A DNA stretch of 64,000 nt from Candidatus Nomurabacteria bacterium RIFCSPHIGHO2_12_FULL_42_19. Lineage in GTDB: Bacteria > Patescibacteriota > Minisyncoccia > Phycocordibacterales > UBA9973. This document shows, piece after piece, positions 14,214-48,607 of the stretch. The stretch lies in the NCBI GenBank assembly GCA_001786955.1, contig MFUM01000004.1:4457-68456 (forward strand). Reading direction: 5' to 3'. The translations under genes were made by a program, and so were the position numbers. Every line of letters begins with the position of its first letter. The first letter of the stretch is position 1. The notes under the pieces were generated by a model. It saw nothing but the letters and a program-made list of their open reading frames with translations, was not told where the DNA came from and ran no database searches.

Positions 14214-15950
14214 TTATTTACGATTATTTTTAATATTCTCTTTTTTCTTATTCAATTCATTTATTTCCTTCAAAATCTTTTTACCTATTTCCTCATTAGA
14301 CGTTTGTCTTAATTCCAGCATTTTCTTGCTTAACTCTTCATTAATATTTTCTTCTTCAAGATTCAGAAACATCTCCGTTATGCTATTTTCTAATTTTTCG
14401 TTGTTCGTATAAAATACTTCTGCTTCGAATATAAGATCTTGTTTGACAACTTCATACTTTTTATAAACTTCTCCTAATTTTTCAAAAATTGCCTTAAAGT
14501 CTATAGCGGACGTTGGACGTCCGAGTTCCGGACGTCCAACGTCCGCTAAGCTTTGCTGCCAAAGAGCGATGCCCAAGAGTTTTCGCTCTATGTAATCTTT
14601 TCTGTACATCTTGGTTAAGCTCTCTCCCGCTTCCTTAATTTCTTCTTTTTCATATCTGAACTCTTGCTCAATTTTTTTTAAATCATCCTGTAATGCATTT
14701 TGAGATATGCCCGAAAGGTCGCTAATCTTTTTTATAAAATGCATTTTTTCTATCGAGCTTTCGAGCGCATTTACAAACGGTAATATTGTGCCTTTTATTT
14801 CCCTACCGGCCTTACGGGTGTCATTGCTATAATTTTTTAAAACTTTACTTAAAAGAAATTCTATAACGTGTTTAGAGTTTTTAATGGCTTCGCGCCAGGC
14901 ATCCGAACCCGTCTTCCCAATCAAATCCGCCGGATCGACACCATCAGGCATATCCACCACTTTTACATCCATCCCCAAAGAAAGAGCGATTTTGCCGGCA
15001 CGAATGGTCGCACTTGCCCCCGCCTTATCAGCATCAAAAGCAAGCACTAGATTCTCCGATAGGCGCCGCACCAGTCCTAAATTGCTTACAACATTTTCTT
15101 TTGAAACAGTAGAATCCGATAAAGCTGTGCCGGATGTCGCGATTGTGTTTTTATATCCCGCTTGATGCGATAATATCAAATCCATCTGACCTTCCACTAA
15201 AACAGAGAAGTTGTTCTTGCGGATGGAATCCTTAGCCTTATCAATTCCGTAAAGCACCGCATTTTTGCTGAAAATGGGCGTCTCGGGAGAGTTTAAATAT
15301 TTCGGTTCTCCTTCCCCTGTAATTCTTCCCGAAAACGCTATAACTCTTCCGCTTGAATCATTCATGGGAAACATAATTCTATTGCGAAAACGATCATAGT
15401 ATCCTTTCTCCGTTTTTTTAATTAGCCCGGCACGCTCTATTTCTAAATCACTAAAACCTGTCAACTTCAAGTGTTCATAAAGCGTCCGCCAGTCATCCTT
15501 CGCAAATCCAATACCAAAATCTTTGATTGTTTTTTCGCTCAGTCCTCGAGATTTTAAATATTCTATTTGTTTCGTTTCTAAGTTAGAAATAAAGAACTTC
15601 TCTGCTTTCTCCATCGCCCTGTATAATTTTTCTTTTTCGCTTTCCGCTTCTTTCATTTCTTTGCTGTAAGCCTTAAGAGGCACTCCGGCCCTATCTGCAA
15701 GAAGTTTTAATGCGCCTTTAAAATCAAGCCCTTCAAATTCCTCGACAAAGGTAAAAATATCACCCGACGCCCCGCAGCCAAAACAGTAATAAGTGCCGCG
15801 GTCGGGAGAAATGAAAAACGAAGGGGTTTTTTCATTGTGGAACGGGCATTTCGCCTTCAGGTTTACGCCTGTCTTCTCGAGCTTTATATAGGAAGAGACT
15901 ACTTCTTCAATCGATAGCCTCTCCTTAATTTTTTGTACGGGGGAATTCAT
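14214..15950 (-). CDS. dnaG: DNA primase
   Basis: Zinc finger [11 protein letters not shown]...CFGCG and a TOPRIM domain ([16 protein letters not shown]). Confidence 0.95.
14506..14546. repeat. family D perfect 18-bp inverted repeat, in frame in dnaG
   Basis: GCGGACGTTGGACGTCCG-agttc-CGGACGTCCAACGTCCGC encodes [14 protein letters not shown]. Confidence 0.7.
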
Positions 15951-23501: not shown

Positions 23502-24236
23502 TTATCTATTTTTCTTCCATTCCTCTATTTTTTTGTGGTTTCCAGAGAGTAAAACTTTCGGAACTTTGTAATTTTTATTCTTATATTTTAAAACTTCCGG
23601 GCGGGTGTAAACTTCACTACTAGAGACTCGTTCTTCTTCTAGTGATTCATATTTACCCAAAACCCTGGGAATCTGGCGAGAAATTGAGTCTATTAAAACC
23701 ATCGCCGGTAATTCGCCTCCGGTTAAGACATAATCCCCTATTGAAATATCTTCTGCCTTAAATATCTTTTTGACCCGCATATCTATGCCTTCATAACGGC
23801 CGGAAATCAAAATAATATCGGTGTATTTTTTTACGGAATTTTTTGCATATGCCGTATTAAATTTTTTACCGGATGGAGAAAAATTTATTATTTTAATTCT
23901 AGAGCGTTTAGAAAGTGTTCTTGCGAATGGTTGACGTTGCGTAGTAGGAAATCCTGAGCGAGAACACTTTCTAAGAGCGTATTCAATAGCCTTTAGCATC
24001 GGCTCGGCTCTCATCACCATTCCCGGCCCTCCGCCGTAAGGCTTATCATCTACCGGGCGATACCCATTGTCTTTAACCCTCCTCCGCTTAAAAGCTTCGG
24101 ACGGGCGAGTAAAATCCCGCGGATTGTAAAATTTCACTTCTATCAGCTTGTTCTTCAGAGCCCGTCCGACAATAGACTCATTTAGGTATGAACTGAACAT
24201 TTCTGGGAATATGGTAATAATGTGAAATTTAATCAT
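23502..24236 (-). CDS. trmD: tRNA (guanine37-N1)-methyltransferase
   Basis: ITIFPEMF, YGGGPGMVM, GRYEGID, IGDYVLTGGELPA. Confidence 0.9.
   Translation of the reverse strand: MIKFHIITIFPEMFSSYLNESIVGRALKNKLIEVKFYNPRDFTRPSEAFKRRRVKDNGYRPVDDKPYGGGPGMVMRAEPMLKAIEYALRKCSRSGFPTTQRQPFARTLSKRSRIKIINFSPSGKKFNTAYAKNSVKKYTDIILISGRYEGIDMRVKKIFKAEDISIGDYVLTGGELPAMVLIDSISRQIPRVLGKYESLEEERVSSSEVYTRPEVLKYKNKNYKVPKVLLSGNHKKIEEWKKNR
23908..23974. repeat. family E hairpin element, in frame in trmD
   Basis: 14-bp inverted repeat TTAGAAAGTGTTCT / AGAACACTTTCTAA around the core TGCGAATGGTTGACGTTGCGTAGTAGGAAATCCTGAGCG. Flanked by the direct repeat AGAGCGT. Sister copy at 38708-38769. Confidence 0.7.
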
Positions 24237-25145: not shown

Positions 25146-27167
25146 ATGAAGGAATCTAAAAACAAATTGCAAGGTATTATTTCCATCTCTTCAAAAGGCA
25201 CAGGCTATGTGGCAACCGGAGAAGTGAAGAATAAGGGCCAGGACCCGGAAATTGATTTCCAGCATTTAAATACCGCCCTGCACGGAGATATGGTAGAGAT
25301 AATCTTGCACCCGAAAGGTAAAAATCGCCAAACTGCTGAAGTTTCAAAAATAATATCGCGCGCAAAAATGAATTTCGCGGGAGTTCTGGAAGAAGAAAAC
25401 AAAATGTTCTTCCTGAAACCGGACGATACAAAAATGTATACAGATATTCTAATCCCAACCAAGTTTTTAAATAATGCGAAAGTTGGACAAAAGGTTTTTG
25501 TGGAAATAATTTCATGGAAAGATCCCCACAAGGCTCCGGAAGGAAAAGTAATAAAAGTTTTAGGCCGTCCGGGAGACAATGATACTGAAATGGAAAGTAT
25601 TGCGATAGAAAAAGGCTTTGATGCGAAACTTCCGCATAAAGTGGAAGAAGAAGCAAGGAAAATAAAGCAAAACGGCATTAAAGAAACCGACTATGCCGGA
25701 CGCAGAGATTTTCGCAAAACCCTGACCTTCACTATTGACCCCTCGGATGCGAAAGATTTTGATGATGCGATATCTTTCAGATTCCTCCCCTCCTTAAATA
25801 AGGAGGGGGCAGGGGGTGGTAATTCAAAAGACCACCCCGCCTCCGGCACCCCTCCTAAAAAAGGAGGGGAAGAGCAATATGAAGTCGGCATACACATCGC
25901 CGATGTCTCGCATTATGTAAAAATCGGCAGTGCTTTAGATGAAGAAGCGCGAGAAAGAGGAACTTCGGTATATTTGGTAGATAGGACGATACCAATGCTG
26001 CCGGAAACGCTTTCTAATGATTTGTGCTCTCTGGTGCCAAATAAAGACCGGCTTACTATGAGCGCAGTATTTATCATAGATAAAAATGCTCATGTAAAAA
26101 GCAAATGGTTCGGGCGCACGGTTATACATTCAAAAAAAAGATTTACTTACGAAGAAGCCGAGGAGTTAATAAAAAAATCCGCTGCGCCGTTCCATAAAGA
26201 ACTTTTTATCTTGAACAGCTTGGCAAAAAAATTAACCGGGGAAAGATTTGCGCAGGGCGCAATATCGCTTGACCAGGAAGAAGTAAAATTTGTTTTGGAT
26301 AAAAATGGAGTGCCGTTGAAAGTAATAAAAAAAGAGCGCGGCGATTCAAACAGGCTGATTGAGGAATTTATGCTCCTGGCAAATAAAAAAGTGGCGGAGG
26401 TCTTGTCTCCAAAAAATATAAAGGGTGTGAAAGATGAAGGCGTATCCATATACCGAGTGCACGATCTGCCGAGTAAGGAAAAAATGGCCGATCTGGCGTT
26501 TTTTTTGCGAAGTTTGGGACATAGAGTCTCCTTGCAGAACGGCCTTATCCCGACATATGAAATAAATAAGCTTCTAGAGAGTTTGGCCGGCAAAAATGAA
26601 GAAGATACGGTGCATCGCGCAGTTATCCGTTCTATGGCTAAAGCGCTTTATTCCACCAAAAATATCGGGCATTACGGTCTGGCTTTTCAATATTATACTC
26701 ACTTCACTTCCCCGATTAGGCGCTATCCGGACATCATGGTGCACAGACTTCTGGAAAAATTCCTCTCTGGCAAAAAAATAAAAAAGGAGGATTTAAAAGA
26801 GAAATTAATCGAATATGAAAAAATCGCCCTAAATGCATCCGAACAGGAAAAACGCGCCGCAGATGCCGAACGAGCTTCCATAAAATATAAACAAGTGGAA
26901 TATATGTCCAGATATCTGGGAAAAAGCTTCGACGGGGTAATCAGCGGGATAACCGAGTGGGGCATGTATGTGGAAGAACTAGAGACAAAATGCGAAGGTT
27001 TGGTGCGGGTACGTGATATGAATGACGATTTTTATATTTTCAATGAAAAAAAATTGGAATTAACCGGACAAAAAAAGAAAAAAAAGTACAGGCTCGGCGG
27101 CCGTGTCAAAATAAAAGTAAAATCGGTTGATTTGGAGAGAAAAACGATAGATTATATATTGACATGA
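25146..27167 (+). CDS. rnr: ribonuclease R
   Basis: RNB domain motifs (TIDPSDAKDFDDAIS, HIADVSHYV, YSTKNIGHYGLA..YTHFTSPIRRYPD) and a C-terminal S1 domain. The 24954 extension is rejected. Confidence 0.9.
   Translation: MKESKNKLQGIISISSKGTGYVATGEVKNKGQDPEIDFQHLNTALHGDMVEIILHPKGKNRQTAEVSKIISRAKMNFAGVLEEENKMFFLKPDDTKMYTDILIPTKFLNNAKVGQKVFVEIISWKDPHKAPEGKVIKVLGRPGDNDTEMESIAIEKGFDAKLPHKVEEEARKIKQNGIKETDYAGRRDFRKTLTFTIDPSDAKDFDDAISFRFLPSLNKEGAGGGNSKDHPASGTPPKKGGEEQYEVGIHIADVSHYVKIGSALDEEARERGTSVYLVDRTIPMLPETLSNDLCSLVPNKDRLTMSAVFIIDKNAHVKSKWFGRTVIHSKKRFTYEEAEELIKKSAAPFHKELFILNSLAKKLTGERFAQGAISLDQEEVKFVLDKNGVPLKVIKKERGDSNRLIEEFMLLANKKVAEVLSPKNIKGVKDEGVSIYRVHDLPSKEKMADLAFFLRSLGHRVSLQNGLIPTYEINKLLESLAGKNEEDTVHRAVIRSMAKALYSTKNIGHYGLAFQYYTHFTSPIRRYPDIMVHRLLEKFLSGKKIKKEDLKEKLIEYEKIALNASEQEKRAADAERASIKYKQVEYMSRYLGKSFDGVISGITEWGMYVEELETKCEGLVRVRDMNDDFYIFNEKKLELTGQKKKKKYRLGGRVKIKVKSVDLERKTIDYILT
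25784..25870 (+). repeat. family A element (modules Y then X), in frame in rnr
   Basis: CCTCCCCTCCTTaaatAAGGAGGGGGCAGGGGGTGGTaattcaaaagACCACCCCGCCTCCGGCACCCCTCCTaaaaaAGGAGGGG. A 30-nt stretch is identical to pheS 40782-40826. Confidence 0.8.
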
Positions 27168-33041: not shown

Positions 33042-33075
33042 AAAATAATGAACGGGGTGAACAATTTGTCAATTC

Positions 33076-33133
33076 ACCTCACCCCCGACCCCTCTCCTTA
33101 TCAAGGAGAGGGGTGCCAAAGGCGGGGTGAGGT
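33076..33133 (-). repeat. family A module Y-like nested hairpin, intergenic (between rpmF and nusB)
   Basis: Outer stem ACCTCACCCC/GGGGTGAGGT. Inner stem CCCCTCTCC-ttatcaa-GGAGAGGGG. Confidence 0.65.
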
Positions 33134-33357
33134 TATTTCTCCGCTTTTTTTGCTTTTGCTTTCTTTTGTCTCTTTTCCGTCTTTTTGACTAAATCCAAAA
33201 TCTTTTTCCCGCGGTAAAAACCGCAAGATGAGCACACTGTATGGCGTCTTTTTAGGGCTTTACAATTTTCACACTTGGAAAAACTCGTAGTTTCCAAGGC
33301 GTGGTGCGAGCGACGGTTTTTTGTATGCGATTTTGTATGCCTCATTCGTACTACCAT
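33133..33357 (-). CDS. rpmF: 50S ribosomal protein L32
   Basis: MRHTKSHTKNRRSHHAL and CxxC...CxxC (CENC, CSSCG). Confidence 0.9.
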   Translation of the reverse strand: MVVRMRHTKSHTKNRRSHHALETTSFSKCENCKALKRRHTVCSSCGFYRGKKILDLVKKTEKRQKKAKAKKAEK

Positions 33358-38412: not shown

Positions 38413-40269
38413 TTACCGCACTTGCCAACCATTATTCTCCTTGATTTTATTGGTTATTTGAGTCATAACTGCATTTATTTCCGCATCTGTAAGAGTCCTA
38501 TCAAAAGACTGGAAAACTACCCTAAAAGCATAAGAGATTTTATCGTCCTTTTTAAACTCATCAAAGAGTTCCGGGCCACGAATTGCAAGACTTCCGGCAT
38601 TATTTTTTATAATTTTTTCTACATCTTTACTTTTAACTCCCTCCGGCACCCAGACGGCAATATCGCGTGCGATAAAAGGAAACAAGGACCACATCTTAAA
38701 AGCTCCGCCTGTGTGCTTTTGCGAACGGTGACGTTGCGAAGCAGGATATTCCTGAGCAAAAGCATCAGGCGAGGCTGATTTACAAAATTCTTCAAGACTC
38801 ATTTCTTTTACTTCTTTTTTATTTCCATAAGCCACATTCATTTCTTCCCCGCTCTTTTTAAACACCGTTCCAATTTCAAAAATTTTTATTTCGTCCATCC
38901 CCAACAAAGGCACGTTGAGTTGGTTTAATTTCAAACTTTCCTTCAGTCCGTCAGTCAGATTCGTCCGCAAAAATTTTTTATCCGAAGCGCTCTGCATCAC
39001 TTCCACTTCCCCACTATTACAAAAAGTATAAGTCATTACTTCACTATATCCTTCGCCGAGCAATTTATTTCTCGCCCAGGAAATCTTCGCATAAGTTTCA
39101 TTTACTTTTGTTTTAAAATTAATTTTTGGTATTTTTCCTTTTACTTTGTCATAGCCAATAATCCTTCCGATTTCTTCTGCCATATCTTCCTCAATTACTA
39201 AATCAAGCCGCATCGGTGGCACGGTGATTACGTATTCTTCTCCCCCTGCTAAGGGGGAGTGCCCATCGGGCGAGGGGGTCTTTGTATATTCAAAGTTATA
39301 TCTTTTCAAAATATCTTCCACTTGAGACACAGAAATGTCCAAACCAAGAATTTTTGAAATTTTTTCCACCGAGAAAGAAAGCTTTCTGATCTCCTGTTTT
39401 TGGGGATAGACATCGACAATGTTTTCAAAAATAGCTTCCGGACACATTTCTAAAATAAGCGCCGATAATTCCAGCATAGCGTGCGGGCCAAGTTCCGGAG
39501 ATAAATCGTTTTCAAAGCGCTTGCGTGCGTCCGTAAATATATTCAAAGCCTGCGCGGTTTTTCTTACGGAAGTTGGATTAAAATTAGCAACTTCCAGAAT
39601 TATATCTTTTGTATTATTATCTACTTCCGCAATTTTCCCGCCCTTGATGCCAGCAATGGCTAAGACATTCTTATCGTCCGAAATGACCATATTTGAAGAT
39701 TTGAACTTTATTTCTTTATTGTCCAGGGTGGTCATCTCCTCGCCGTCTTTACCGTTTCGGACAATTATGTCGCCCTGTATTTTATCCAAATCAAAAGCAT
39801 GTGCGGGCTGACCGCAATCAAACATCACAATATTCGCCGCATCTACCACATTATTTATGCTTCTCTGCCCTATTGACTCCAGATGCTTTATGACCCATTC
39901 CGGACTGGTGCCAATTTTAATATTCTTTACAATTCTCCCCATATATCTTCTACATTTATCTGATTGGACATCAATTTTTAATTCTGCCTGCCCCGCCGGA
40001 GCCTTGGGCGCAGGCGGGGGAATTTTATACTTCGGAGCAGGATCAACATACTTTATATTTAAAAGTGAAGCGAGTTCACGCGCCACGCCCTGGTGGCTAA
40101 GTAAATCATGCGCGCGGTTTGGCAAGATTTTCAAATCAAAAATATTATCATCCCCTTTTTTCTCTAAACTCTCAACTTCACAAAGATGGTAATTAAAAAC
40201 ATCCACAAATTTTTCTGCATCAGGTGCTTCCGGTATATACCATTTGAGCCAATTGTAAGAAATCAACAT
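38413..40269 (-). CDS. pheT: phenylalanyl-tRNA synthetase beta subunit (short form)
   Basis: B3/4, B5 and FDX-ACB-like C-terminal regions. Directly downstream of pheS. Confidence 0.9.
   Translation of the reverse strand: MLISYNWLKWYIPEAPDAEKFVDVFNYHLCEVESLEKKGDDNIFDLKILPNRAHDLLSHQGVARELASLLNIKYVDPAPKYKIPPPAPKAPAGQAELKIDVQSDKCRRYMGRIVKNIKIGTSPEWVIKHLESIGQRSINNVVDAANIVMFDCGQPAHAFDLDKIQGDIIVRNGKDGEEMTTLDNKEIKFKSSNMVISDDKNVLAIAGIKGGKIAEVDNNTKDIILEVANFNPTSVRKTAQALNIFTDARKRFENDLSPELGPHAMLELSALILEMCPEAIFENIVDVYPQKQEIRKLSFSVEKISKILGLDISVSQVEDILKRYNFEYTKTPSPDGHSPLAGGEEYVITVPPMRLDLVIEEDMAEEIGRIIGYDKVKGKIPKINFKTKVNETYAKISWARNKLLGEGYSEVMTYTFCNSGEVEVMQSASDKKFLRTNLTDGLKESLKLNQLNVPLLGMDEIKIFEIGTVFKKSGEEMNVAYGNKKEVKEMSLEEFCKSASPDAFAQEYPASQRHRSQKHTGGAFKMWSLFPFIARDIAVWVPEGVKSKDVEKIIKNNAGSLAIRGPELFDEFKKDDKISYAFRVVFQSFDRTLTDAEINAVMTQITNKIKENNGWQVR
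38708..38769. repeat. family E hairpin element, in frame in pheT
   Basis: TGCTTTTGC / GCAAAAGCA arms around the core TGCGAACGGTGACGTTGCGAAGCAGGATATTCCTGAGC. Compare trmD 23908-23974. Confidence 0.65.
39237..39280 (-). repeat. family A module X copy, in frame in pheT
   Basis: The coding strand GACCCCCTCGCCCGATGGGCACTCCCCCTTAGCAGGGGGAGAAG encodes TPSPDGHSPLAGGEE. Confidence 0.65.
39984..40020. repeat. family B-like GC-rich insert, in frame in pheT
   Basis: CTGCCTGCCCCGCCggagccttgggcgcaGGCGGGGG encodes PPPAPKAPAGQAE. Confidence 0.55.
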
Positions 40270-44451: not shown

Positions 44452-44536
44452 GGAGGGTTCGCATAGCGGTCTAGTGCGCACGCTTGGAAAGCGTGTGTGG
44501 AGCAATCCACCAGGAGTTCGAATCTCCTACCCTCCG
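44452..44536 (+). tRNA. tRNA-Ser (anticodon GGA), long variable arm
   Basis: Manual cloverleaf: acceptor GGAGGGT/ACCCTCC, anticodon stem CACGC/GCGTG, loop TTGGAAA, T-loop TTCGAAT, discriminator G. Confidence 0.9.
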
Positions 44537-44818: not shown

Positions 44819-47014
44819 TTATAACATACTTAAAAATTCTTTCTCGCTTAATATTTTTACACCCAGCTTTTCGGCAACTTTAAGCTTGGAGCCCGGGTCC
44901 GCTCCGGCTACGATATAGGAAGTATTTTTTGAGACGGAACCCGCGACTTTCCCTCCGAGAGCCAGGATTCTTTCTTTAGCAATTTCTCGGGACATTTGGG
45001 AAAGCGTCCCGGTCAAAACGAAATGTAATTCGGTAAATTTGTCGGCTTTCTTTTTTTCCGCTCTTTCCACGATTACGCCATTTCTTTGCAATTTTTTTAT
45101 GAAATTCAAATTATTTTTATTATTAAAAAAATCATAAACGCTTTTTGATACAGCCGGGCCGATGTTTTCTATACTATCTATCTCAGCAAGGACTCCCCTT
45201 GCTGAAGTTATTAATTTTTCCAGAGTGCCAAAGTGTAGCGCTAAATCTCTTGCTGTTTCCTCCCCCACATGCAGGATTCCGAGCGCCCACAGAAAGCGTG
45301 AAAAAGGGATTTTCTTTTTATTTTTTATTTCATTGATTATGTTTTCCGCCGATTTTTCCCCAAAGCGTTCCAGGAGCGCTATATCTTCTTTTTTAAGGGT
45401 GAAAATGTCGGCTGCGTCGGTAATGAGCCCTTCGTCCTTGAATCTTCTCAGTATTTTCGGGCCTAATTCATAAATTTCAAAGACAGAAACAAAATGCTCT
45501 AAATACCTTTCGTTTTTTGCCGGGCATTTAGGATTGCTGCAATAATGAGCGACAGAGATATTCTCCAGCTCGCAAGATTTCTGAGTCGCGTAAGTCCCAC
45601 CCGGTACCCCGGGAAGGGTCAAGCGCGAAGAAATCTCGTGAGCCGAAGAATCCCCCATCTTTTTCTTCCTAACTTTTCCTCCGCAGGCCGGGCATTTGTC
45701 CGGCATTTTGAATTTTTTTTCTTTGCCTGTCCGCATCCGAATCAGCACCTCCACTACTTTCGGTATCACATCGCCGGCTTTTTCTATCACGACCGTATCC
45801 CCGATACGCAAATCAAGGCGCTCTATCTGGTCCATATTATGGAGAGTAGCCTTGGACACCCGGGAACCCGCCACCAGCGTCGGCTCAAAAAGAGCGAGCG
45901 GTGTCAATACACCGGTACGCCCGACATTTACCTTTATATCCTTTACTATTGTTGTCGCTCTTTCCGCCGGATATTTGAATGCCACCATAAAGCGCGGCGC
46001 CTTGCCGACCACCCCTAGTGTCTCCTGTAATTTCAAATCGTCCACCGAGACAACGACGCCGTCCGTGCCGTAGAGAAAATCGGGCCTGATTTTTTCAAAT
46101 TTCTTTATGAAAGTAAACACTTCATTCATATTAGCGCACAGAGCCTCCAATTTCTCAACTTTAAATCCAATCCTGCGGAGCATTTGATGTTTTTCGGAGT
46201 GGGTTTGCATAGCCGAATCATGAATTTTCTGAGTCGCGTAAGTCCCACCCCGTACTCGGGGAAGGGTCAAGCGCGAAGAAAATTCATGATTCGGCGTAGC
46301 CTCGGCTATATCGTAAGCAAAAAAATCCAATTCCCTTTTGGCGGCTAATTTTGGATCCAGCTGCCGCAAACTTCCTGCCGCGGCATTTCGGGTATTGGCA
46401 AAAAGGGGTTTTCCTTTTTTCTCATTTTCTTTATTCAATTTAACGAGCATTTCTTTGCTCAAAAGCGCTTCTCCGCGGATTTCCAGGTGCGGAAGGTATG
46501 GTTTTTGGAGAAGAAGTGGAATTGAATGTATGGTTTTGAGATTTTGGGTTATGTCTTCCCCAATTAATCCGTCTCCTCTCGTTGCGCCGCGCATAAACTT
46601 GCCATTTTCATAAACAAGCGAAACTGCCAACCCGTCAAACTTGACTTCGCAAAAATAATTAAATTTCGCGCGCGCAGGTAAAAGCTTTTTGATTCTTGTT
46701 TCCCACTCATATAATTCTGTCTCACTAAAAGCATCATTAAGAGAAAGCATGCGGGTTTTGTGCTGAACTTTTACAAATTTATTAAGCGGTTTGCCGGCTA
46801 CTCTGTTTTCCGGAGCATTTAAATCGTTAAATTCGGGGTATTTTTTCAAAAGCTCTTTAAGCTCGTGAGTGAGAGAATCGTAAACATCGTCGGTTACACC
46901 GGGGGCGTTTTGGGTATGATATAAATCACGCAAACGCGCGATTTCTTTTCGTAATTTTTTTACCCGCTTGGATTCGGCGAGGCTGGTTCTTTTTTTATCT
47001 TCCACCTCTTTCAT
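44819..47014 (-). CDS. ligA: NAD-dependent DNA ligase
   Basis: Adenylation motif CEVKFDGLA, OB fold, Zn finger CPACG...CSNPKCPAK, HhH and BRCT domains. About 60 aa longer than usual because of two inserts. Confidence 0.95.
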   Translation of the reverse strand: MKEVEDKKRTSLAESKRVKKLRKEIARLRDLYHTQNAPGVTDDVYDSLTHELKELLKKYPEFNDLNAPENRVAGKPLNKFVKVQHKTRMLSLNDAFSETELYEWETRIKKLLPARAKFNYFCEVKFDGLAVSLVYENGKFMRGATRGDGLIGEDITQNLKTIHSIPLLLQKPYLPHLEIRGEALLSKEMLVKLNKENEKKGKPLFANTRNAAAGSLRQLDPKLAAKRELDFFAYDIAEATPNHEFSSRLTLPRVRGGTYATQKIHDSAMQTHSEKHQMLRRIGFKVEKLEALCANMNEVFTFIKKFEKIRPDFLYGTDGVVVSVDDLKLQETLGVVGKAPRFMVAFKYPAERATTIVKDIKVNVGRTGVLTPLALFEPTLVAGSRVSKATLHNMDQIERLDLRIGDTVVIEKAGDVIPKVVEVLIRMRTGKEKKFKMPDKCPACGGKVRKKKMGDSSAHEISSRLTLPGVPGGTYATQKSCELENISVAHYCSNPKCPAKNERYLEHFVSVFEIYELGPKILRRFKDEGLITDAADIFTLKKEDIALLERFGEKSAENIINEIKNKKKIPFSRFLWALGILHVGEETARDLALHFGTLEKLITSARGVLAEIDSIENIGPAVSKSVYDFFNNKNNLNFIKKLQRNGVIVERAEKKKADKFTELHFVLTGTLSQMSREIAKERILALGGKVAGSVSKNTSYIVAGADPGSKLKVAEKLGVKILSEKEFLSML
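45568..45642 (-). repeat. family C hairpin element copy 1, in frame in the ligA Zn finger (75 nt)
   Basis: Outer arms GCTCGCAAGATTTC/GAAATCTCGTGAGC. Core TTCTGAGTCGCGTAAGTCCCACCCGGTACCCCGGGAAGGGTCAAGCGCGAAGAAA. Confidence 0.8.
46212..46295 (-). repeat. family C hairpin element copy 2, in frame in the ligA adenylation region (84 nt)
   Basis: Perfect 17-bp arms GCCGAATCATGAATTTT/AAAATTCATGATTCGGC. The core differs from copy 1 at 3 positions. Confidence 0.8.
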
Positions 47015-47017
47015 ATA

Positions 47018-47509
47018 TTAATAAGATACTCTGATTTCACGTTCAATGCGATTCGGATTAGAGGGTAAACATCCGGAATCGCCAATATTATATCCCTTTG
47101 AGGTAACTGTCGTGATTATTGACGGTGCTTTAGTGATATTATCTTTAAAAACAGTCACATTGGCACAACCAAGCTCGCTATTACCCAGTCTGGAAACGAC
47201 AAAATTCCAGGATGGGAAAATGCCATTCAGGGTAATATTGCCACCGAGACACTGCACTGTGCCTGATCCTCCGCTCTGCACGAAAGAATTACTGGAAGGT
47301 TTGTCATTGTTGAGTGCGCATTCGGCGCCGGTATCAGCGGCAAAAAAAGCTTCATTGGTGTCTTTGGCGGAAGTGCCAAATCTGATTTCTTTCAAAGCAA
47401 TATTAGCAACACCCAGAGCGATGGCTAAAAGAATACTTGAAAGAGTAACTGCAAAAAGTATTACAAATCCCCTATTTTTTTTTATTTTTTTTATAATCAT
47501 TGCGTCCAA
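47018..47509 (-). CDS. pilus-cluster protein with a hydrophobic N-terminal segment (PilX-like?)
   Basis: NRGFVILFAVTLSSILLAIALGV N-terminus. Last gene of the pilin operon. Confidence 0.4.
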   Translation of the reverse strand: MDAMIIKKIKKNRGFVILFAVTLSSILLAIALGVANIALKEIRFGTSAKDTNEAFFAADTGAECALNNDKPSSNSFVQSGGSGTVQCLGGNITLNGIFPSWNFVVSRLGNSELGCANVTVFKDNITKAPSIITTVTSKGYNIGDSGCLPSNPNRIEREIRVSY

Positions 47510-47955
47510 TTAAATAAATTTTCTGAAAAAGTTATGCTGTAATTCCCTGAACCTTGAGTCCAGGAAACGGTTGAGAAAATTTTAACTTCCTCCGAATTTA
47601 CTATAGTTTTTTGAATTGTGCGGCTAAAACTAGAATCGGCAGGAGAGGAAGGAGTTATGTCGGCTATGTTGGCATCTCTGAAATTACTCCAATTTTTTCC
47701 TGTCGTTTCGGTATATAAAACATAAGTGTCACGCACATTCCTGGCATACTCGATGCCTTCTTGGGTCAAATAGGCGGCAATTATTTTCTTTTTGGCATAA
47801 TTGGTATCGGCAATTCCCTGAGACAAAATTATCAGCAGGCCTAAAATTGACACGGAGAAAATGGAAACAGCAACAAGCGTCTCTATTAAAGTGAATCCCC
47901 TCGGCAAGTTTGGAACTTTTTGATTTTTATTTTTTTGTTTAAAAAAATTTCTCAT
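47497..47955 (-). CDS. prepilin-type N-terminal cleavage/methylation domain protein (minor pilin)
   Basis: GFTLIETLVAVSIFSV class III signal. Confidence 0.7.
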   Translation of the reverse strand: MRNFFKQKNKNQKVPNLPRGFTLIETLVAVSIFSVSILGLLIILSQGIADTNYAKKKIIAAYLTQEGIEYARNVRDTYVLYTETTGKNWSNFRDANIADITPSSPADSSFSRTIQKTIVNSEEVKIFSTVSWTQGSGNYSITFSENLFNWTQ

Positions 47956-47959
47956 AATT

Positions 47960-48607
47960 TTAAATATCTATCAGTCTTTGGGACACTGAAGTCTGCAGAG
48001 AAAAGGGCGTGGCAACATTTTTAAAAGTTATCGTTCCAGTCAGTTTGATAGTAATAAAAGGTTGCTGCTGGTCGCCGGGAGGAGAAGTATAATTAGGGGG
48101 TTCGGCGCCCAATACTGAAAATCCGGAAACCGCCGAATCAATTACAACTTCGTCGGGAGTCAGTTGGATAAAATTAGATGCGCTATAAGGACCCGCCGTT
48201 GATTTGAAAATCTTGCCGCTGTCCAGATAGTAAATCCATTGATCGTCGTGATTAATCGGATCGCCGTCTGCAGCAGTAGAATCGCCATCGGCAGATTCAA
48301 AGGCTATGGCCCAGCCATTTATGCAACTCTTTGGAACGCTCACAATCGGAGAAGTAGTAGAAGGAATCGTGTCTCCGGCTGTAAAACAGTGATAATTATA
48401 TCCTGTTCTTAAATTTCTGGACATATCTTCCAGAATAAAACTTAAATTGTCTATTATTGAGCGCATGCTTTGCGATTTTTGGTGAAGCAGGTTGGCATTC
48501 AGGAGAGCGCCCATGCCGGCCATAATAATAATTATAAAAATAGACACGGCAATCATTGTTTCAATTATCGTATAACCGCCTTTAATTTTAAAATCTTTTT
48601 TAAGCAT
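47960..48607 (-). CDS. prepilin-type N-terminal cleavage/methylation domain protein (minor pilin)
   Basis: GGYTIIETMIAVSIFIII class III signal. Confidence 0.7.
   Translation of the reverse strand: MLKKDFKIKGGYTIIETMIAVSIFIIIIMAGMGALLNANLLHQKSQSMRSIIDNLSFILEDMSRNLRTGYNYHCFTAGDTIPSTTSPIVSVPKSCINGWAIAFESADGDSTAADGDPINHDDQWIYYLDSGKIFKSTAGPYSASNFIQLTPDEVVIDSAVSGFSVLGAEPPNYTSPPGDQQQPFITIKLTGTITFKNVATPFSLQTSVSQRLIDI

Follow-up and report, generated by a model that had tools for sequence, protein, structure and literature searches.

In-frame hairpins in the DNA ligase gene of a Nomurabacteria genome: probable members of a family of small palindromic mobile elements, with a proposed spread by template switching

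The gene ligA of Candidatus Nomurabacteria bacterium RIFCSPHIGHO2_12_FULL_42_19, which belongs to the candidate phyla radiation (CPR), contains two long hairpins that share a conserved core and are read through in frame. The gene lies in a 64,000-nt stretch of contig MFUM01000004.1 (positions 4,457 to 68,456; assembly GCA_001786955.1), here called the window, in whose coordinates all positions are given. Our data cover these 64 kb of the source genome and, elsewhere, flanks of up to 10 kb. The gene and its two hairpins are laid out as follows:

44819–47014, minus strand: ligA, NAD-dependent DNA ligase of 731 aa, host of both hairpins (open reading frame (ORF), Pfam and PDB matches)
45561–45650, minus strand: copy 1, whole hairpin, in the zinc finger, where it separates the cysteine pairs CPAC and CSNPKC (fold)
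45578–45633, minus strand: copy 1, conserved core of 56 nt, short inner arms TTTCT/AGAAA included (blastn-short, alignment A1)
46212–46295, minus strand: copy 2, whole hairpin, in the adenylation-domain loop between DFFAYD and THSEK (fold)
46226–46281, minus strand: copy 2, conserved core, 53 of 56 nt as in copy 1 (94.6% identity; blastn-short)

The window LigA carries the adenylation, OB, HhH and BRCT domains in Pfam, the zinc-finger model covering residues 488–499 only, and it matches LigA structures in the PDB (best E = 6.6e-149); an identical protein is present in the public collection (P0001). Its alignment with E. coli LigA (2OWO) is interrupted exactly at residues 237–271 and 450–485, which places copy 2 in the adenylation domain and copy 1 between the cysteine pairs of the zinc finger. 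An earlier sequence-only reading of the window had located both copies at these places in ligA. It had also described the inserts as in frame, with 25 and 28 codons, and as sharing 55 nt with three differences; both statements are borne out, the shared core measuring 55–56 nt. Two of the differences form the proposed compensatory swap in the apical stem (CCCGG/CCGGG versus CCCCG/CGGGG) and the third lies in the loop. The same reading took the outer arms to be unrelated between the copies and self-complementary within each, which holds, but the boundary of copy 1 had to be moved: the end of its 3′ arm is 45643 and not 45642. The 14-nt arms of copy 1 contain one mismatch and one wobble, and pairing reaches out to 45561–45650 (22-nt arms with four differences, all transitions). 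The arms of copy 2, GCCGAATCATGAAT and ATTCATGATTCGGC, pair perfectly. Copy 1 encodes the peptide ..DSSAHEISSRLTLPGVPGGTYATQKSCELEN...

When folded as RNA, both strands of both copies reach −46 to −56 kcal/mol (z-scores −7.4 to −10.9), a stability that was matched by none of 200 shuffles; the fold energy of copy 1 is −53 kcal/mol. Compared with empty orthologous sites, the copy 1 site is ∼85 nt and the copy 2 site ∼72 nt longer. The GC content of both hairpins is 52–59%, versus 41% for the window, and the core is open in four of the six reading frames. A search of the window that tolerated up to three mismatches located the half-cores TTCTGAGTCGCGTAAGTCCCACCC and GGGAAGGGTCAAGCGCGAAGAAA at exactly two places each, against 0 expected by chance. 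The Rfam 15 covariance models gave no match at gathering thresholds in the window, and at E up to 10 over 45500–46350 no weak match covers either hairpin. Hammerhead, twister and bulge-helix-bulge structures were considered by eye and dropped.

We aligned 120 LigA relatives that are 70–79% identical to the window protein, 667 to 784 aa long and annotated as Nomurabacteria, Paceibacteria or Minisyncoccia. Insertions are concentrated in few hotspots: in this set, which is possibly somewhat enriched in inserts since the query itself has them, the copy 2 loop (DFFAYD to xxHSxK) contains 21–45 additional residues in 48 relatives and the copy 1 loop contains an insert in 75. Among 80 species-representative genomes that were retrieved independently, an inverted repeat is present at 32 of 80 Zn sites and at 27 of 69 second sites. 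In the ligA DNA all occupied sites form hairpins (−53 to −63 kcal/mol), and empty sites do not fold. By their peptides the inserts belong to many families. That of the window (ISSRFTLPGVPGGTYATQK) is found at the Zn site of at least 10 orthologues, and the opposite-strand peptide (SE.RKSHPV..EGSS.KK) is encoded in two. In related species these ligA loops also hold other core families that are built alike. At two loci (L007 and L008) two different hairpin elements stand in tandem in one ligA zinc-finger loop, which brings the cysteine-pair spacing up to 65–73 residues.

Despite the inserts the LigA domains are intact, and the zinc cysteines C441, C444, C492 and C497 are invariant with or without an insert. 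In an AlphaFold2 model built from a 46-sequence alignment, which is moderate overall (mean predicted local distance difference test score, pLDDT, 69.7), the inserts (residues 242–267 and 453–488) have pLDDT values below 50 and no secondary structure; they project from a confident adenylation domain with blocks at 85–95. The inserted peptides are thus predicted to be disordered loops. Genic copies keep the reading frame and contain no stop codon, which argues for translation rather than excision. Judging from these frames, the elements are almost certainly translated, as extra and presumably surface-exposed loops of 25–30 residues where a protein tolerates one, in LigA the zinc-finger loop and the adenylation-domain loop.

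The core is not confined to ligA. With a strict 22-base pattern built from invariant core columns we found 72 metagenomic loci, at most three of them on a single contig, and 69 of these lie outside ligA; the further copies for which the sequence-only reading had suggested a search do exist. Of these loci, 65 are situated within ORFs of at least 100 aa, and nearly all are read through in frame. According to Pfam the hosts are leucyl-tRNA synthetase (LeuRS), DNA polymerase III delta′, an RluA-type pseudouridine synthase, a methyltransferase, an FAD-linked oxidase (two sites), UvrA, UvrC (two sites) and UvrD; overall the ligA core resides in at least 10 functionally unrelated types of host gene, and a few copies are intergenic. 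In the related loci centred on ligA the core was found in ligA only, and the viral contigs searched contained no copy. Simple intragenic duplication as the origin of the two ligA copies was ruled out: the two copies agree at 95% of core positions while having nothing in common in their arms, and the core recurs at 69 further loci. In the metagenomic LeuRS genes of L114, L116, L136 and L156 a NUDIX domain is inserted after the editing domain, an unusual fusion that is unrelated to the hairpins.

By our own count of distinct host contexts there are ∼13–14 independent core sites. About 13 of these are sense to the host gene and one is antisense, and ∼11 of the 13 share one frame (..NSSGLTLPGVPGGTHTVQNSS..); counted over copies, the orientation is strongly biased (60/65). 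Flipped cores were observed in L003, L028, L111, L112, L119, L130 and L141, every one of them at a site that is also known unflipped. As these copies keep the core nucleotides yet encode another peptide, the constraint acts on the nucleic acid and not on the peptide. Host genes lie almost always on the local majority strand, and the orientation can therefore not be attributed to the gene as opposed to replication.

Every family that we examined shows the same anatomy: a conserved central core, short inner arms and locus-specific outer arms of 10–25 nt that are nearly perfectly complementary. The mobile unit is a GC-rich core of ∼55–65 nt with its short inner arms. Whether the outer arms are always copy-specific had been left as a question by the sequence-only reading; they are, throughout the ligA core family and in independent families. 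At orthologous sites the arms are homologous yet diverged, with changes matched on both sides. In alignment A1 the proportion of invariant columns is ∼65% in the core versus ∼17% in the arms. Covariation was measured on a 10-member family alignment with slid partners and 500 shuffles as controls: 94.9% of the cells are paired, compared to 30–47% for slid partners, and 25 of 38 pairs are changed on both sides, compared to 3–5, with none of the 500 shuffles reaching the observed values. We also counted mismatches in the arms of 79 in-ORF hairpins by an ungapped scan in which G.T and A.C were scored alike. The arm positions comprise 1473 Watson–Crick pairs, 17 G.T, which the mRNA would pair as wobbles, 31 A.C and 21 transversions, and 33 of the 79 hairpins have perfect arms. 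Selection on an mRNA hairpin is expected to favour G.U on the sense strand. Since the imperfect positions show no such preference, pairing seems to be kept at the level of DNA. The earlier claim that pairing rather than sequence is conserved is thus supported by covariation, and its two-sided interpretation can be narrowed: a hairpin-dependent mechanism acting on DNA is favoured, selection on an mRNA hairpin is not.

Hairpins of this kind are not limited to the ligA core family. We surveyed 1.53 Mb of related loci by inverted-repeat seeding and called hairpins of −40 kcal/mol or lower strong. Their density is 0.34 per kb in ligA versus 0.087 per kb elsewhere; all 59 strong hairpins in ligA are read through in long ORFs, as are 65 of the 118 outside ligA within ORFs of at least 150 aa. 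By extrapolation a genome of ∼1 Mb would carry about a hundred strong hairpins. Clustering revealed an independent family in ligA, PheT and other genes of one genome (L007, L008, L024). The window itself holds further elements:

38701–38776, minus strand: second-family hairpin in PheT, in frame (..SPDAFAQEYPASQRHRSQKHTG..), core with its own arms
23904–23978, minus strand: second-family copy in a 253-aa ORF, in frame, with different arms
25775–25884, plus strand: GC-rich double hairpin read through in a 771-aa ORF (structure 25771–25885)
14491–14559, minus strand: perfect 19-bp palindrome without a core, read through in a 580-aa ORF

The second-family core in the window reads ..CTCAGGAWTWTCCT..CGCAACGTCA..TTCGCAA.., and the PheT site directly before MWSLFPF is occupied in all 11 orthologues examined, by different families. 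Relatives of the double hairpin (cluster 5) are known from different genes in other genomes. The core-less palindrome (AGCGGACGTTGGACGTCCG / gaact / CGGACGTCCAACGTCCGCT) resembles others in the ligA hotspots of L056, L041 and L017; such palindromes may represent element footprints or else precursors. The GC-rich hairpin at 33061–33148 (ACCTCACCCC...GGGGTGAGGT) is probably intergenic. Strong non-coding structures of −52 and −46 kcal/mol are present at 527–670 and 751–868, without an Rfam match at gathering thresholds.

Around ligA itself, a conserved type IV pilin/pseudopilin-like block lies upstream (47018–48607 in the window; L001 to L003) with an N_methyl motif, a prepilin peptidase and type II secretion system (T2SS) E/F proteins, and the synteny of this block with ligA is kept across related genomes. 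Downstream of ligA the window contains a tRNA (44452–44536). In many related genomes a conserved structured sequence directly follows ligA (cluster 4, 10 members, including L007:12252, L011:12162, L027:12476, L030:12047, L053:12032 and L066:12746).

Empty and occupied sites allow the origin of the arms to be considered. At the two ligA sites the extra length equals 0.92 (±0.09) × core + 0.92 (±0.38) × arm (n = 46), and hence roughly one arm's worth of new DNA accompanies each hairpin. Individual pairs of sites agree in kind: the empty site of L037 already has the 5′ arm sequence, to which L072 adds the core and a 3′ inverted copy; the 5′ arm of L001 includes the TTGCCAG (Leu-Pro) of the empty L039 site; and the 5′ arm of L024 is the conserved coding sequence for GGNVEK. 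Across 33 occupied sites the 5′ arm is closer to the empty-site sequence in 22 and the 3′ arm in 10 (Wilcoxon p = 0.048), and at the Zn site alone the 5′ arm is the better match in 17 versus 5, although these tests are less independent than the figures suggest because sites share ancestry. The proposal that an insertion duplicates its flank in inverted orientation therefore receives moderate support from the length regression, the L037/L072 and L039/L001 pairs and the 22 versus 10 comparison. At L058 only an 8-bp palindrome of arm remnants is left, with the insertion point at its centre, which we read as a putative deletion footprint.

No conserved terminal sequence or terminal inverted repeat was found, the outermost 10 nt of 70 copies showing no consensus. 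A target duplication of fixed length is likewise absent: most copies have flanking repeats of 0–3 nt, like controls. The junctions between empty and occupied ligA sites carry 2–4 nt of microhomology, and across sites the range is 2–7 nt. Direct repeats of 5–7 nt occur at two or three sites only, including LeuRS and HolB, where both arms may have been imported.

We propose that the two ligA hairpins are members of one family of small, non-autonomous palindromic mobile elements that reside in protein-coding genes of Nomurabacteria/Paceibacteria (CPR) and spread by template switching, and we consider this reading probable. Such elements would be spread and maintained by switches of the DNA polymerase at hairpins during replication and not by a transposase. 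The preference for template switching is drawn from the flips of the core at fixed sites, the matched arms and the variable microhomology at the junctions. In this mechanism a nascent strand would copy the core from another copy via the shared inner arms, and would then fold back on the inner arms and copy part of the adjacent host flank in reverse, so that the outer arm would be host sequence in inverted form. The arms would be kept matched by later switches between them, which would resemble compensatory evolution, and an occasional switch would invert the core between its arms. Slippage deletions could take out cores and leave small palindromic footprints, which may in part be why the same loops are reoccupied by different core families. 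Template switching between the arms of inverted repeats is known to homogenise the arms and to invert the spacer, also in coding DNA (PMC8604942), and it is reported to be able to generate perfect hairpin stems and to preserve them (PMC8794818).

Several points weigh against this interpretation. Transposition of the core by a template switch is itself deduced, and no intermediate or polymorphic allele was seen. The bias towards sense insertion in one frame (∼13 sense, 1 antisense) is strong, and template switching under pure neutrality would not predict it. The core is far better conserved across species than the arms, and a trans-acting protein could recognise it. The LeuRS site (L136, L114) has two arms of imported appearance, and the 5–7 nt direct repeat that flanks its hairpin resembles a target-site duplication. 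In the length regression the error of the arm coefficient is wide, and shared ancestry makes the effective sample smaller than n = 46. Finally, the case for translation of the inserts is the conservation of their frame.

[quoted passage not shown] The arms would then be by-products of insertion into short palindromic targets, or of a target duplication of variable length. This is the main rival, and we regard it as unlikely but deserving of serious weight. The much stronger conservation of the core, unpaired internal-loop bases included (∼65% versus ∼17% invariant columns), speaks for it, as do the orientation bias of insertion (60/65), the 5–7 nt direct repeats flanking the LeuRS and HolB hairpins and the empty L058 site, a small palindrome with a central insertion point; target duplications of 3–26 bp have been reported for YPAL/RU-2 (PMC2229807). 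However, the 70 copies lack a conserved terminal inverted repeat, there is no duplication of fixed length and the ligA pairs show only 2–4 nt of microhomology. Moreover, no transposase-like gene was found beside intergenic copies within the short flanks available, whole genomes not having been searched, and the viral contigs are free of copies.

That the structure is selected by the host and not selfish, be it as an mRNA hairpin tuning translation, folding or stability or as a DNA structure used by the cell, appears very unlikely to us. The great stability of the hairpins (z-scores of −7 to −11), the strong covariation, the prevailing sense orientation and the ∼3.8-fold higher density of strong hairpins in ligA than in its flanks would fit such a role. 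Against this, G.U on the sense strand is not favoured (17 G.T versus 31 A.C), flipped copies persist in intact genes, and the core recurs in 10 or more genes of unrelated function as well as between genes; many orthologues have no insert at the same loops, and there is no match to an Rfam family. Even more improbable is an intervening sequence that is removed before the protein is made, whether as a mini-intron or ribozyme, by RNase III excision and religation or by ribosomal bypassing. A long perfect stem that joins the flanks, mostly in sense orientation, is the geometry used by such mechanisms, but removal would free the insert from constraints on frame and stop codons, and yet every copy in ligA, and almost every copy in another gene, is stop-free and a multiple of three in length, with flipped copies in frame as well. 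There is also no match to a ribozyme or intron family even at E up to 10, and the take-off and landing codons and the stop codon that bypassing needs are missing. The untranslatable gap of translational bypass in T4 gene 60 or yeast mitochondrial byps is not present either, as both ligA copies are open and in frame.

Among known systems the closest kind, judged by description, would be the Rickettsia palindromic elements (RPEs), which reportedly go back to work by Ogata et al. in 2000 and 2002 and are said to occur also in Wolbachia and Methanocaldococcus jannaschii. RPEs are palindromic repeats that lie in frame within conserved genes and are tolerated by the proteins, and their mode of movement is described as unknown (PMC10969869; PMC2229807). 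Like the ligA-type elements they are short repeated palindromic DNAs with a long stem-loop, dispersed in reduced genomes; both leave conserved housekeeping genes intact, add a family-specific peptide in frame and have intergenic copies too. The long stem-loop, the many dispersed copies and the in-frame insertion into intact conserved ORFs are thus all found here, whereas the element-wide conservation of RPEs including terminal inverted repeats is not, the termini being locus-specific. RPEs measure 105–146 bp and possess a 12-bp terminal inverted repeat of their own (PMC2229807), but in the ligA-type elements only the central core of ∼55 nt is conserved, the same protein loops are contested by numerous core families and cores invert at their site. 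The hosts differ as well, a CPR lineage on one side and an alphaproteobacterium on the other, and the likeness is set by anatomy and not by sequence comparison.

Bacterial MITEs (Correia/NEMIS, ERIC, RUP, YPAL/RU-2) are likewise small non-autonomous repeats with long stem-loop transcripts, some of them intragenic with open frames (PMC2229807). They differ by family-wide terminal inverted repeats, mostly with target-site duplications and often with TA ends, whereas the ligA-type elements have neither conserved termini nor a fixed duplication. In REP/REPIN sequences with RAYT transposases the hairpin is also the unit that is recognised and copied, with many copies per genome; REPs, however, are extragenic, 20–40 bp long and marked by GTAG or CGTC tags (PMC3733652), and the ligA-type elements are mostly intragenic, in frame and without such tags. 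Template-switch (quasipalindrome) mutagenesis shares arm homogenisation, apparent compensatory changes and spacer inversion with the elements described here, also in coding DNA (PMC8604942; PMC8794818, PMC7202029). That process is described for local repeats, and the copying of a 55-nt core between distant loci would be our extension of it.

No description of such elements in CPR/Patescibacteria was found in the full-text literature searched, a coverage that leaves out most subscription journals. Apparently, therefore, the essential genes of Nomurabacteria-type CPR bacteria harbour a large and undescribed population of small palindromic mobile elements. To our knowledge, selfish palindromic DNA tolerated inside essential proteins is a curiosity known almost only from Rickettsia; here such elements appear far denser and more diverse, and they occur in a major uncultured bacterial radiation. 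The combination of a conserved core with locally built arms points to replication-based movement without a dedicated enzyme. The elements would help to explain why the surface loops of CPR proteins vary in length, and they call for caution in annotation and structure prediction, where 25–30-residue junk loops can mislead—the Pfam zinc-finger model, for example, is only partial on the window LigA. They also offer natural experiments on the insertion load that a zinc finger or an aminoacyl-tRNA synthetase can bear. More tentatively, and with more doubt than confidence, we suggest that CPR bacteria may possess an as yet undescribed, transposase-free class of mobile DNA in which GC-rich hairpin cores are copied from one coding loop to another by template switching, receive stems built from the host, flip in place and leave palindromic footprints. 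If this were true, such elements would contribute heavily, and still today, to differences in length among essential proteins; in the Nomurabacteria sampled, for example, over half of the LigA zinc fingers are split by one.

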